A stretch of DNA of 64,000 bases, from NCBI GenBank assembly GCA_951406725.2, contig OX597815.1, positions 141,112,001 to 141,176,000 on the forward strand, read 5' to 3'. This document shows, piece after piece, positions 4,360 to 58,689 of this stretch. Under the pieces are notes generated by a model. That model was given only the letters and a program-made list of their open reading frames with translations. It was not told where the DNA came from and searched no databases. The DNA comes from Octopus vulgaris. Lineage: Eukaryota. Position 1 is the first letter of the stretch. Each line of letters begins with the position of its first letter. The translations under genes were made by a program, and so were the position numbers.

Positions 4360-4886
4360 TACTAAATGTAGATACTGATTCACGTTCTGGGAGACCTGCA
4401 ACTAGCAGAACTGAGAAAAACTTCGCAGATGTGCGTGCTGCTGTGAGGGGAAATCGTCGAATCACCATCCGTAAGTTATTAGAGGATGTGCAGATTAATT
4501 ACGGTTCAGTTCAGTCCATTATCTTTGACGTTTTGGGGGATGAGACGGCCAAAACTGCTTTCAGTTAACCAAAAAGACACGCCGGCTTCAGTTGCACATG
4601 CTCTTCTTGACTGTGTCGAGAAAGATGAAAACACTTTGAAAACTTTTGTGTAGATATCACCAAGATTTTTTGCAAAATTTTCGCTATCATGGTCAATGCG
4701 ACGATCTCACGCTACACATCTTCCTTCTATGCACTGCTAGCAACAGCAGAAGTAAGCAAGAACGTTAAAACTTGGAGCAGATGCACAAAAGAGTTCAAGA
4801 TCTATCTGTGCCAAGCAGTTTTATTGTGTGTGCGTTAGCTTCGTTACTTTGGCAAGAGTCCTGATACTTATTGATTAGACCACATA
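4360..4886 (+). mobile_element. Mariner transposon relic (HTH fragment plus right TIR)
   Basis: DSRSGRPATSRTEKNFADVRAAVRGNRRITIRKL...INYGSVQSII matches the mariner transposase DNA-binding region; mariner-like TIR ctgatacttattgattagaccaca followed by TA. Confidence 0.8.
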
Positions 4887-4898
4887 TATATCTGTATG

Positions 4899-4969
<71 letters not shown>

Positions 4970-4973
<4 letters not shown>

Positions 4974-5553
4974 GAAATATGTTACAAAAAGAAAATAGAA
5001 AATACACGTGGTAATGTAAGAGGGAAGTAAGAAAATAAACGAAAATGCACATTGTAAATAAAAAAGTAAAGGCTCTTTATGAAAAGTTACGAAAGATATA
5101 TACAATTAGATGAACTGAGGTAGGAATAAAAGTAATAAAATCATTATTTAAAATGATTAAAGAAATTCAAGCATACCGGCAGTTTTGTAAGTTACGAATC
5201 ATTGCTTTGAATACAACTATTCATTGCTTTGAAAGCACACCGATTAATGAACGGTGTCAGGTTTAATAGTTCCTGAGAAAAAGATTATTTGTAAGGGAGG
5301 TAAGTAGTTCTGGATTTGGTGCAATTAGGTTGGATATAGAATTGTAATGTGAATGGTGTAGGGGATGTATGGATGTTAGTGGTATTAATTGACAGGTTAG
5401 TAGTGTTCTGTATTATGTTATGTGTTCATATTTAGTTGGGGAATATATTTCTTGTTGAAAGTTGCCTCTTTATTCTTTCTTTGTGGCATTGAAGTCTTAG
5501 AACACCAAATCCAGAACTACTTACCTCCCTTACAAATAATCGTTTTTCTCAGG
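4970..5553 (-). mobile_element. Probable PLE pseudo-LTR remnant with ~50-bp inverted duplication
   Basis: 5272-5321 is the reverse complement of 5503-5552 (1 indel); degenerate hammerhead scaffold at 5166-5211 (-); abuts (TA)n at about 4970. Confidence 0.5.
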
Positions 5554-6457
5554 GCTGCTTGTTTATTTGTTTGTTGGGTACTCTGTAATTTTAATTTCAT
5601 GTGTAATGCTTGTAGTATAAAATCTTTAGCTGTTCATGTATTCAATTCTGTGGCTGTGTAGCATATTCTGTGCGACATATAGTTATTTAAATGTTAATGT
5701 AAACGTTATCATAGAACTCAGTACGTTGTTTAGAAAGGATAGATACATTTATTATATAAAATATGTGAATCTAGCCCGCTATCTGAATAAGGTTTCTTGT
5801 TAAACTGTAACTCAAGGAAAAACATCAGATTATTTGTAGGAATGAAAGAAGATACTTTTTAGAATGCAATTAAATCAAGGTAATTGAAACTAAAGCTACA
5901 AAACAAAAAGGGAACAAAATAAAGAAACTATAGATAATGATACCTTGTGGAAGTTTCCCGAAAACAAGTTCAGTATTACGATATGTCTAACAGAAGTTAT
6001 TGAATTAAGAATGAATAAAATGAACAGGCCTGTAAGGAAATAAATAAATGTATTAAGACAGAAGGAAATGGTAAAGGTAACGATTTTTTTTCAAATGGGT
6101 GTTTAAATGATTGATGTATTGCCAAGTTGATAAGACGCTACAAGTGTTAACAGTCTTTTTATAATAACAAAAGAATATTTTTGTAAAATGTTTTCAGCGA
6201 TGCAGTTTCTTATTATTGAATATATAATTTGTAAAGAATATTTAATTTTGAAGAAAATAGCTGTCCATACACAATATTTTATCAACCACGGAGACAAGCG
6301 CGGCGCAAATTTCCTACATAGTTTATTTACTTTCGAGTTGCAAGATACGATAAGAACGAACATCCAGTGCAAAAAACTGATCACTGCTGTTTGGAGAATG
6401 CCAGTACTGAAGCCATGAGAATTTTATATTTCGAGGGTGTGTGTGAGTGTGTGTGTA

Positions 6458-6506
<49 letters not shown>

Positions 6507-6819
6507 GAAAGAGAGAGAGAAAGAGAAAGAGAGAGAGAGAAAGGGAGAGAGAAATAGAAAGAGAGAGTGAGAATATGGAAATAAAATCCAGATGTTTGTC
6601 ACGAGAGTGTAACAAATGGAAGTGAACTAGACATTTTTGATAAGTATATAGTTTACTGATTACTAAATATATATGCATATTTTCTTCAATATTTAAATCT
6701 TTAAAAAATTATATTCTACTTGTAACGAAGGTACTAGTTTTTACACAAAGATACAAACATTTCTCGTTTGGATATATGTTGTCAAAAATATGCTGCATGT
6801 TGAAATTGAGATATGTTTT

Positions 6820-7140
6820 ATAATCCGTGACTTTACAATTGGGGGGATAAGGGGGCCATAAATTGGGACTACCGATGTCGTAGAAATTCTCCGGCAATCC
6901 TATTTCCGGAGTTATAACGAGGAACTGGATCATGTTGTCACACACATGGACTTGCAGCCACTACCTTCTCCATCTAGGTTGTAATACAGTCTCCAGAGGC
7001 TTCACATAGCCATCACAATTAAGTAGGACGGAATGGCGTCACACTCACTGGGGACAATCCTGCAGGCCATCACAGTGTGAAGGAAATTGGTTCCATGATA
7101 TGTGATAGATCACATGGATTGTAGGTAGGCTCTGATTATT
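6820..7140 (-). mobile_element. Tc1/mariner (maT, DD37D-like) transposase relic
   Basis: TNFLHTVMA...ENFYDIGSPNLWPPYPPNCKVTDY is a degenerate WPPNSPDxNPLDY motif; related to 31640-32320. Confidence 0.7.
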
Positions 7141-7209
7141 GTAGAACTGGTCCTGGGATATATACATATAATATTGCCTCTCTCTCGCTCTTTCTCTCTC
7201 TCTCTCTCA

Positions 7210-7282
<73 letters not shown>

Positions 7283-7308
7283 GGGTTATTGGTTTAATGT
7301 GGGTTTAT

Positions 7309-7369
7309 GTGGGGTTATTGGTTTAATCACTGATGACCCGACCATGGAACAAATTGTATGAGTTATATG

Positions 7370-7413
<44 letters not shown>

Positions 7414-7474
7414 CATATAACTCATACAATTTGTTCCATGGTCGGGTCATCAGTAATTAAACCAATAACCCCAC
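7309..7474. repeat. Near-perfect 166-bp palindrome centred on (TA)n
   Basis: Arms of about 62 bp (gtggggttattgg...gagttatatgtt and aacatataactc...ccaataaccccac) with one mismatch, around a self-complementary (TA)n core. Confidence 0.95.
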
Positions 7475-7906
7475 GAAGCCTCTTTGGTGAAGAGGTTGAT
7501 TTACTGGATACAATGCGGGACGAAAGAACCAAGCATATGAAATGGCGAAGGAACTCAAGTGAATTAAAGGCCCATTATGAATATATATGTAATATTCCGT
7601 GCAGTAATCTCTAGGGCTTAGAGAAATTGTGTTGCTTCTGAAGGCGCAGTAAATTCGCTGTGAATGAGGGGCCTATGATCTTTGCCTAAGCATCATTATA
7701 GCAGAAGGATAAATCGTATATAAAATCCACTACTGGACTAAACCAGGTAATTTACAATTTCGTTGCCTCTGGGCTTCCCAGAATTACTAGTATTAGCCAC
7801 TGACGTTTGTATAAGCTGCACTCGACTTCAAACACTTGCATAGGCATTGCTGATACATCTGTCAGTTATGTGCATGTGTCTCTGTGTGTTTCTGTGTATA
7901 TACATA

Positions 7907-26110: not shown

Positions 26111-26885
26111 TATCAGACTATGGATGGTTAAATTACAAAAGGTATATAGCCCATTGTTGTACCATTCGAAACATTTTATTCTTTATATATATATATATAC
26201 ATACAATTTTTTATAACTTATCATTGGATGTAGTTTGTCTGATGTCGCTTGGTCAGATAAGGTATGTTCAAATTTTTTAAGTACTCTCAAATTAGAAATC
26301 TTGAAATACTGTACTGAAGAGCGAGAATGATAAAGTGGAAATGTAGTTTTTGCATTTTCCACATCTGTCTAACTGTGAATTCGTTATTTTTTTCTCCTTG
26401 CCTACGTGGGGTGTTGGGTATTGTTGTCTGGGAGATTTTCTTATGGTAGAGAAATAGCTAGTTTTAGCTGCTATTTCTAAATTTCGGTATGTAGTGAAGC
26501 AATTGTTTTTGCTGAACCCTTATTATAATTATACTTATAATTATAAAAAAATTTAAATTTTACCGATAATTTTTCTTTTAACATGCCGAACTACTTGGTA
26601 AGATTATTAATTATCAATTAATTAATTACTCTTACCCTTTATTATTATTGATATATATATTAGTCAGTAAATGGTGGGGGGGGGGGTGTTAATCGCACGT
26701 GGAGAAATGATAGGACAGGAAAAATAATAAGGTAGAATGCTAAATTGAAAGTAAATTTTAATAAAAATGGGTGTATGAAAAATTAAAAAAGAAAAAAAAT
26801 CAAATCGGTTTTCATTGCAAGGCAAATTTTCAAGATTGGAAGGGGAACAAAATTATTTTTCAATTGAAGAAGAGGAAAAAGAAAT

Positions 26886-56284: not shown

Positions 56285-57159
56285 TGGCTATTTACCACAC
56301 ATACACTCCTACGCCTATATATATATATATATTATATGCACAAACTCACACACACAAACACGCACACATACACACACATACAAACACACATACGTTTTCA
56401 TAATGTATTTCATTAAATTCATAGCTAAAAGCTTTAGTCGTACACCGTTTTGTCGATCTCATTTATTGTAACAGTCTCACATTTTCTTTTAAGTCATTCC
56501 ATTAACTCCTTTGCAAACTGTATATGTTGTTATTCTCCTAAAACGGACTGCACAATTGCACTCATTACACAAAAAGATATTTCCATTAAAATACTATAAA
56601 TATTCCACGGTTTTATCATATCATGTCATATGTTTATTCTCTGCTTTTCTAATGAACCACATGTGTAAATGTATTTTGATTTAGTTATCATTTATGGATA
56701 CAATTAAGCATGTTTATTTCTTTGTGCCTGTCAAATATTGCATATATATATATATATATATGTATGTATATACGTATATGCATGCGTGTCCGTGTATTTC
56801 TTCGTATGTGTGTGTTCCTGTATATGTGTGTGCTGGTGAATTCGTGTGTATATTGTGTGTGCTTGCGTGAAAGTGTGAATGTTACAGTGCATTTCTATTG
56901 GTTTATATATGATAAATGTGCATTGAAATTAGTACATGTTAATTTAAACGATGTCGATTTCTTTTGAATTCATACATCATTATTTCATTGTGAAGTAAAT
57001 AAGAACGGTAATTTCTATGCAGATTGAAACTGCTGGCGGGTGGGCACAACCGCCAGAATTTCTACCTACATAAACACAATGTGCAGAAAGGTATGTTTAC
57101 ACGCCCACAACAAAGAATGTTTATATTCTCTCTTTACCTCTTTCAGCTTCTAATTTAGC

Positions 57160-57346
57160 TCCTACACGCATTTTTTCTCTCGTTGTTTCTCTCCTTGTTT
57201 TTTTTCTGTGTATCTTTCTGTCGAAGAGCGTAGGCTCGAAACGTAAAATACTTTTTCTATTTCTATTCCTGAGCGCCACACTAATACATTTGTTTGTTTG
57301 TACTCCACCTGCCTTCGTATTTTGTTTATTTTCGTAAACCTTCCCG

Positions 57347-57348
<2 letters not shown>
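57160..57348 (+). mobile_element. Family-A pseudo-LTR copy
   Basis: Matches 3490-3660; motif TTT-CTGTCGA-A-GAGCgtagGCTC-GAAA-CG-TA/AAA at 57215-57248. Confidence 0.78.
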
Positions 57349-57380
<32 letters not shown>

Positions 57381-57384
<4 letters not shown>

Positions 57385-57660
57385 TTGGCTATTCTTTCTA
57401 CTTAAAAGGGAGATCCCAGTAAAACCAAAGCACTTAAAAACCAAACGGCGCAAGCAAAAGAGAAAGAAACGTCCAAAATCATTCTATATTAAGTCACCTA
57501 CGGACGTACGTTTCGGAATTAAGTTATTGCAGAGCATAAAAATTAAATAATTAATTTTAATACACAGTTATTATTAATTGAGACGCAAGTATTTATAATT
57601 GAAGAGTCCTACGCTGAGGAGGAAAATAGTCAGGTAAGACATAATTATTTAACTTTTATG
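57381..57660. mobile_element. Family-E inverted pseudo-LTR pair with a split hammerhead
   Basis: 5' half of a hammerhead on + (57608-57660), 3' half on - (57497-57552), overlapping by an 18-nt inverted repeat. Confidence 0.7.
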
Positions 57661-58205
57661 ATGGTCCTCTGGCAGACGTTCGTCCTCAGCCGCCTGGATT
57701 ACTGCTCACAGCTATGGTCACACACCAGTGTAAAATTAACAGCGGACCTTGAAGCAATCCAGAGAAGATTCACAAAGAAGATCGTCTCTTTGCAACAGCT
57801 CAGCTACTGGGAAAGGTTGAAACAGCTAAGACTCTACTTCCTGGAGAGAAGACGGGAGAGGTATGCAGTAATATATGTCTGGAAGATCCTGGAAGGAATT
57901 GTGCCAAATATTGGCATTGCAAGCTACACCAATGCTAGAACGGGACGACACTGCATAGTACCAAAGATCCCAGCAATGCCATCACGCTTCAGGACCAGCT
58001 TCTGCAATAGCCTGTGTTTCAAGGGGCCATAGCTTTTTAATATTCTCCTAAAGAGTCTGAAGAACTGCACAAAGTAGATGTAGCGGTTTTAAAATCAAAG
58101 ATGGACATCTTCCTGTCGAGAGTCCCAGATGAACCTACCTCACGGCAAGAGATGCAAATGAGAGTAGCTATATCAAACTCCATTCTTCACCTGAGCTGAA
58201 ACGAG
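57658..58205 (+). mobile_element. CR1-group LINE 3' fragment
   Basis: LWQTFVLSRLDYCSQLWS...LEAIQRRFTK..LSYWERLKQLRLYFLERRRERYAVIYVWKIL; ends gagctgaaac, then (TA)n/(TG)n. Confidence 0.88.
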
Positions 58206-58232
58206 AGAATATATATATATATATATATATAG

Positions 58233-58265
<33 letters not shown>

Positions 58266-58689
58266 TATGTACTATCTCTGTATATACCGCACTGATAATG
58301 TAGGGTGTATTGTTATGCAAAGTCAGAAATCTAATCTGGGATTATCCAATAATTTTTTGCTAGTTTATTTGTTCCTTTTGTCTTTTCTCCTGGTGCTGTA
58401 TCAATACTTGATGTGGTTTATGAGTTTGACTGCTATGTCAAGCATGGTGGTATCCTTTAGATGCCCTTAATTGTGATTTTAATAATAACTATTACTATAA
58501 CGTTTTTATTTCCATGCTGGCCACTTGATATGATCGGTATTTTAAATAAAAATCTTAGACTTATTTGCTGTAGCCCATTTTTTACCAAGACAAATCAATG
58601 CACATGATAACAGTTCCAATCAGTTAAGACCAGATGCAATGAGCAGCACTGACTGGTACTGCATTTGGGCATTTTATTATTATTTATTA

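Follow-up and report, generated by a model that had tools for sequence, protein, structure and literature searches.

Penelope-like elements (PLEs), as the consulted parts of PMC8557442 describe them, form partial tandems, carry an inverted 5'-truncated copy at the 5' end, show a bias towards microsatellites and have a hammerhead ribozyme in the repeated part. According to an excerpt of PMC11167929, a protein of a PLE was seen in vitro to cut the two target strands and to extend them. The type-I hammerhead ribozymes (HHRs) of metazoans, in the portion of PMC4209133 on which we rely, have a 6-bp helix I and a helix III of 1-2 bp with a palindromic loop, and act as dimers; the same portion mentions pairs of HHRs whose members lie on opposite strands at a distance of 100-700 bp. 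It has been proposed that animal retrozymes are Penelope derivatives of a non-autonomous kind (PMC7229834; bioRxiv 10.64898/2026.07.22.740005; both cited from part of their text). Outside of this group, a twin-priming model has been proposed for the 5' inversion of LINE-1 (PMC10760644), a model that is itself unproven.

The locus discussed here lies in a stretch of 64 kb from Octopus vulgaris (a piece of contig OX597815.1), which we call the window; its features, between 57155 and 58209, are collected in Table 1. Here the two halves of a hammerhead ribozyme stand on opposite strands, each in one arm of a repeat that we designate E. In our opinion, the region 57382-57660 is probably one dead, rearranged copy of repeat E, the 5' part of which was turned round during insertion in a manner resembling twin priming. 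The locus looks like an ordinary Penelope-type insertion scar, and the split ribozyme like its by-product.

The two arms and their surroundings

Table 1. Positions of the repeats, arms and duplicated segment around the split hammerhead, in window coordinates
Feature	Position	Strand	Remarks
Repeat family F, 5'-truncated copy	57155..57347	+	at least 40 genomic copies at 95-97% over query 156-348
(TA)17 microsatellite	57348..57381	.	separates repeat F from the minus arm of hammerhead repeat E
Main (3'-side) arm of hammerhead repeat E, unit 357-529	57382..57553	-	93.1-94.8% identity (173 nt)
18-mer, first copy, apical part of stem II, unit 358-375	57535..57552	-	pattern search
Inverted 5' arm of repeat E, unit 268-375	57553..57660	+	93.5-95.4% identity (108 nt)
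18-mer, second copy	57643..57660	+	last three bases ATG (57658-57660) common to the LINE fragment (microhomology)
LINE-like element, 3' fragment, 5'-truncated, with C-terminal RT-like ORF	57658..58209	+	39 other copies at 96% over 57658-58191

The first-pass annotation had quoted two half-ribozyme strings, and both are indeed present. On the + strand, 57608-57660 reads CCTACG CTGAGGA GGAA ... AATTATTTAACTTTTATG, that is, the 5' strand of stem I, the box CUGAGGA and the 5' strand of stem II; on the - strand, 57552-57497 reads AATTATTTAATTTTTATG ... TTCC GAAA CGTACGTC CGTAGG, which comprises the 3' strand of stem II, GAAA, CGUACG, the GUC site and the 3' strand of stem I. The same annotation joined the halves at an overlap of 18 nt. 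The duplication holds, while mapping of the arms adjusts its length to 18-19 nt. Searched as a pattern with one Y and at most one mismatch, the 18-mer has exactly two sites in the 64-kb window, against a mean of 0.00 over 100 shuffles of the window. It was this pattern search that revealed the inverted repeat; a repeat-pair search on 56500-58500 listed 25 pairs, all of them matches between TA repeats.

Head to head, the two arms abut at 57552/57553, where they share about 1 nt; in unit coordinates their overlap is 19 nt (357-375). The inverted arm does not repeat the main arm; it is the stretch of RNA just upstream of it, turned round. At its outer end the plus arm joins the LINE fragment through a 3-nt microhomology, ATG. 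To the left of the insertion is (TA)n and to the right the LINE fragment, and these flanks show no readable target-site duplication. In the whole window repeat E is represented only by the two arms and by an isolated fragment of 42 nt at 26462-26502, which has 85.7% identity to the 3' region of the repeat and lies 31 kb from the locus.

By inspection of the sequence, (TA)n tracts are found at the 3' ends of repeat E and of its neighbours. The 3' end of repeat F reads ...CCTTCCCGT and is followed by a TA-rich tract in five of the five copies shown; repeat F is a third (TA)n-seeking family, and the (TA)17 tract is a target or tail tract common to repeat F and to the minus arm of E. A hammerhead-like string in repeat F, in the left flank (57218-57243, CUGUCGA-AGAGC-GUAG-GCUCG-AAAC), was considered as a further hammerhead and rejected, since its first box is CUGUCGA and not CUGANGA. 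On the other flank, an ORF at 57547-58032 overlaps the LINE-like fragment, which lacks about 77 nt internally, at 58191/58192, and is followed on its 3' side by a (TA)n(TG)n tract. The LINE-like family has a very high copy number (4013 first-look candidates in the genome), and (TA)n follows its 3' end in three of four other copies.

The contiguous hammerhead and its split copy

The check set beforehand for the joined hammerhead was a search of the genome for it as a contiguous repeat, and many contiguous copies were found. The genome (2.8 Gb, 227 contigs) was searched with window 57440-57700, and scoring of the best 40 of 1928 first-look candidates gave 79 matches. These matches break at 57553, and at the other loci the two pieces have the opposite relative orientation to that in the window, with an overlap of about 18 nt. 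A strict motif pattern identified a contiguous hammerhead of 90-93 nt in 10 of the 20 loci returned.

The proposal that the joined halves have a type-I layout is borne out by the Rfam type-I model, Hammerhead_1 (RF00163), which aligns end to end with one contiguous copy, L010 (model 1-45 of 45): CCUACG CUGAGGAG [58 nt] CGAAACGUACGUC CGUAGG. All core positions and the putative three-helix type-I arrangement are thereby accounted for in contiguous copies. The score, 21.6 bits, is below the gathering threshold of 34 because helix II is 58 nt long; the E-value is 0.2 when 9.3 kb are searched and 0.0031 for a search of 141 nt. Stem II had been described earlier as 4 bp capped by an AU-rich insert of about 50 nt. 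The 58-60 nt between the core strands are instead predicted to form a single long imperfect hairpin of about 60 nt, with a folding energy of -14.2 kcal/mol. The fold of the whole contiguous motif has no extra stability relative to shuffled sequences (z=-1.24; 21 of 200 shuffles fold as well). Among the loci retrieved, the core is intact in 31 of 35 de-duplicated family copies, and 20 of the 35 also keep the 6-bp helix I and the CGUACG palindrome; the free core position N7 varies, being G, U or A. To judge by these sequences, a family with the joined hammerhead really exists.

The halves in the window belong to this family. They carry CUGAGGA, GAAA and GUC, in agreement with the core CUGANGA ... 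GAAA and the NUH triplet, and each is one base off the commonest base per position in 14 contiguous genomic copies of 91 nt. An exact 22-mer of the 3' half has 88 genomic sites (the window and 87 others) and one of the 5' half has 55 (the window and 54 others), while the reversed controls have 0 in both cases. Evidently the half-ribozymes are not chance look-alikes. What the window does not have is three helices on one strand, a feature that is present in the contiguous copies. Its halves are on opposite strands, hence the window copy is not a ribozyme gene, and neither strand of it would now be able to make self-cleaving RNA. Rfam at gathering thresholds finds no hammerhead in the window, nor does its permissive mode in 56500-58500, which is expected because the motif is split between the strands.

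It could still be asked whether the two strands cooperate. The first-pass annotation suggested that bidirectional transcription might assemble a trans-acting enzyme-substrate pair. In such a natural split ribozyme, stems I and II would hold divergent transcripts together, and the minus-strand RNA would be cut at GUC. Both halves retain an intact catalytic core, and bare halves of 53 and 56 nt are predicted to co-fold in the hammerhead pairing (-17.5 kcal/mol, compared with -5.6 and -1.7 alone). However, folding in silico supports the pair only for these minimal halves: the hammerhead pairing is absent from the predicted folds of transcripts of 208 and 171 nt. In the fold of the 208-nt transcript, CUGAGGA pairs instead with UCCUCAG of the LINE (57683-57690). 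Indeed, GCTGAGGA of the ribozyme 5' half (57613-57620) is exactly complementary to TCCTCAGC in that part of the LINE fragment. Further, the locus belongs to a large set of decaying copies (its arms are at 93-95% to the reference copy), breaks hit the ribozyme at chance rate, and a short palindromic helix III is reported, in the part of PMC4209133 cited here, to need a second copy for activity. We regard a natural split ribozyme at this locus as extremely improbable.

The first-pass annotation also spoke of an event captured mid-ribozyme. Arm starts fall within the 92-nt ribozyme in 15 of 79 cases, with 15.8 expected (60 loci found by the 3' probe); 5' ends are not enriched there, the capture within the ribozyme has no particular significance, and the idea that stem II is a hot spot of truncation or inversion is rejected. 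The window break lies inside the ribozyme by chance. That two other loci, L002 and L008, break in the ribozyme as well is due only to how they were selected, namely by similarity to the junction of the window. A real hot spot of arm starts is located at unit 464-512 (49 nt), with 31 of 79. Six of the 79 arm starts are at unit 388-396, the 3' base of helix II.

Origin of the inverted arm

Repeat E is a non-coding, AT-rich unit of about 600 nt with the ribozyme at unit 323-414 and the predicted cleavage site after GUC at 407; unit coordinates refer to one natural copy, L012:1234-1835. A 22-mer from its 3' region has 931 genomic sites, hence there are at least 931 copies, and this 22-mer is ten times commoner than those from the ribozyme halves, which means that most copies are 5'-truncated. 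Ordinary copies extend to unit 599 and have a tail of about 100 nt. The 3' ends are at (TA)n in the window, in L002, in L008 and in a copy on contig C4. Among the first 100 listed sites of the 3' probe, neighbours within 1.5 kb are head to head in 23 cases, tail to tail in 0 and direct in 10, and 8 of the 10 direct neighbours are spaced by 577-602 nt, as in a partial tandem of pLTR type. When 20 loci were taken in listing order regardless of structure, 11 had an inverted arm joined straight to the 5' end of the main arm, and the same was seen in 8 of 25 further loci that seemed single by the 3' probe. A first all-against-all BLAST, run without a low-complexity filter, was swamped by microsatellites.

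Repeat E behaves like a Penelope-type element, a conclusion supported by its (TA)n sites, its partial tandems and its head-to-head inverted 5'-truncated copies. Of the Penelope-style origin assumed at the outset, the Penelope-type habit of the repeat and the inverted 5' arm in the window are upheld; the place of the break within the ribozyme is fortuitous. Two copies on C4, 2.9 kb apart, were considered as a Penelope unit and rejected, for they belong to a segmental duplication of mixed repeats. This is a 2.9-kb tandem duplication with 98.7% identity, seen when L021 and L022 are joined (4439-7364 and 7372-10308 of C4:31204000-31220000), and a single copy of the hammerhead repeat lies in it together with a LINE-like fragment and a GIY-YIG-like ORF fragment.

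For LINE-1 5' inversion, twin priming was proposed, reportedly by Ostertag and Kazazian in 2001. As in that case, the inverted 5' segment of the window is adjacent to the 3' segment in RNA coordinates; the breakpoint shows a small duplication and the joints show microhomology. Unlike LINE-1, the enzymes were likely an RT with GIY-YIG and not the L1 ORF2 protein, and the window has neither poly(A) nor a readable target-site duplication. Inverted-arm end and main-arm start are at unit 375/357 in the window; the same layout recurs in L002 (341/340), L008 (330/332) and L094 (521/508), in all three cases without a LINE. The overlap of 19 nt in the window is larger than the 1-2 nt at L002 and L008, two loci retrieved by likeness to the window's own junction.

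Under the 5' inversion that we favour, a first cDNA would have been primed at the (TA)n tract and would have stopped at unit 357, within stem II. The other target strand, beside the 5' end of a LINE that was present beforehand, may have annealed via ATG just after 375; a second cDNA would have been primed there and copied from 375 to unit 268, and the two cDNAs would then have been joined. In the head-to-head pairs that are seen more often, with two arms extending into the 3' region, both strands would have primed at RNA 3' ends. The layout of the insertion also fits a protein of Penelope type that in vitro cuts and extends the two target strands (PMC11167929). Several features speak against a 5' inversion: the main arm ends at 529 directly at (TA)n, without unit 530-599 and the tail; LINE sequence is found on one side of the insertion only, thus the target was not simply "inside a LINE"; a target-site duplication is not readable; and the overlap exceeds that at L002 and L008.

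The position of the LINE allows other explanations. An ordinary head-to-head pair may have come first, with a LINE inserted later into the plus arm at unit 375 and the remainder of the arm lost. Pairs in which the two arms extend into the 3' region are the usual form, the 3-nt microhomology at the truncated LINE 5' junction is what LINE end-joining would give, and the LINE family also ends at (TA)n. However, within the window there is no remainder of the plus arm beyond the LINE, and it would be left to chance (about 1 in 8 on an arm of about 330 nt) that the end of the plus arm lies no more than 19 nt from the start of the minus arm. L002 and L008 have the same layout without any LINE. We consider this order of events unlikely, though it deserves to be taken seriously.

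Alternatively, the cDNA may be chimeric: an RT working on LINE RNA would have switched template at AUG to the repeat RNA, copied it from 375 to 268 and joined the minus-strand copy of the same event. The LINE and the plus arm are both sense on the + strand and are joined at microhomology, and both families use (TA)n sites. Yet this requires two RNAs and two primings in one event, there is no other LINE-repeat chimera among the loci examined, and L002 and L008 need no LINE; in our opinion such a chimera is improbable.

It may finally be supposed that a canonical minus-strand copy suffered a later DNA inversion with staggered breaks, or that the assembly is in error. Staggered breaks can yield an inverted duplication at the breakpoint of an inversion, and structures of this kind do trouble assemblies, as the cited part of PMC8557442 notes. 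The family-wide excess of head-to-head neighbours, 23 to 0, nevertheless points to the insertion process and not to random inversions. As to the assembly, the junction 57552/57553 is bridged in run X1 by a short-read contig of 137 nt (57496-57632, depth 48, one differing base), X1 being possibly the assembly's own sample. The junction 57660/57661 is crossed by no listed contig of any run and is thus known only from the assembly. Runs X2, X3, X4, X9 and X15 have no contig over 57555-57571, and X14, the one run tried that was presumed to be RNA, gave 0 contigs; these gaps carry no evidential weight. A later inversion or an assembly error is, we believe, very improbable.

Relation to Penelope-like elements and retrozymes

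If repeat E is moved by an autonomous partner, candidates are not lacking in this genome. For a GIY-YIG-like fragment there are 4649 first-look candidates, and the listed matches often form pairs, minus followed by plus. One full-length Penelope-type unit, L052:1-7494, has an ORF of 1311 aa with a long low-complexity insert rich in N, S and T. It contains a partial tandem (1239-2906 equals 5823-7494) and an inverted arm (1-1084 equals the reverse of 4897-5981), and its 3' end is at (TA)n. The nearest Atlas clusters to its ORF are of RVT_1 with GIY-YIG (score 0.97), which we treat as a lead only. Pfam gave 0 families for the 1311-aa ORF, for the LINE fragment and for the GIY-YIG-like piece. A comparison of repeat E with eight other GIY-YIG loci, a tiny part of the 4649 candidates, found neither similarity nor the motif; Rfam detected no hammerhead in three long-ORF loci or in the pLTR of one of them, nor any in the full-length L052 element, and no sequence link between repeat E and the full-length L052 element was found.

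Repeat E resembles endonuclease-positive PLE units with a pLTR, as the portions of PMC8557442 and PMC4209133 at hand describe them, in its partial tandems, its inverted 5'-truncated arms, its (TA)n target and the hammerhead in the repeated part. It differs from them in having no ORF and no similarity to an autonomous element among those compared, and the inverted arm of the window continues the main arm upstream instead of repeating it, which is the rarer form.

With the animal non-LTR retrozymes, as the cited part of PMC7229834 presents them, repeat E shares a non-coding and AT-rich sequence, a type-I hammerhead, direct tandems and the presence of PLEs in the genome. Its helix I of 6 bp and its helix III of 2 bp, the latter capped by a palindromic tetraloop, likewise match the retrozymes in the excerpted descriptions. 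On the contrary, its unit of about 600 nt exceeds the roughly 150-450 nt reported in those descriptions, and its helix II is a hairpin of about 60 nt whereas theirs is of about 4 bp. Its copies are mostly single, 5'-truncated or head to head and not in the long arrays of the retrozymes so described. Taken together, repeat E likely derives from Penelope-like elements and is non-autonomous, in other words an animal "retrozyme", and it would likely be moved by the RT/GIY-YIG elements that are abundant in the genome, a partnership that we infer.

As a single locus, the split hammerhead matters little, being a dead insertion scar. The family of repeat E gives some genomic support to the notion that in Penelope-type integration both target strands can serve to prime cDNA, as reported in vitro (PMC11167929). 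Usually this priming would occur at two 3' ends and give head-to-head pairs; occasionally it would be internal on the same RNA and give the layout of the window. Repeat E also adds a variant with a long helix II and a unit of about 600 nt to the hammerhead-bearing retroelements of animals. If the split ribozyme were true after all, Penelope-type 5' inversions would be one route by which genomes make two-piece ribozymes. Motifs of half-ribozymes on opposite strands would be an expected by-product of Penelope-type insertions.
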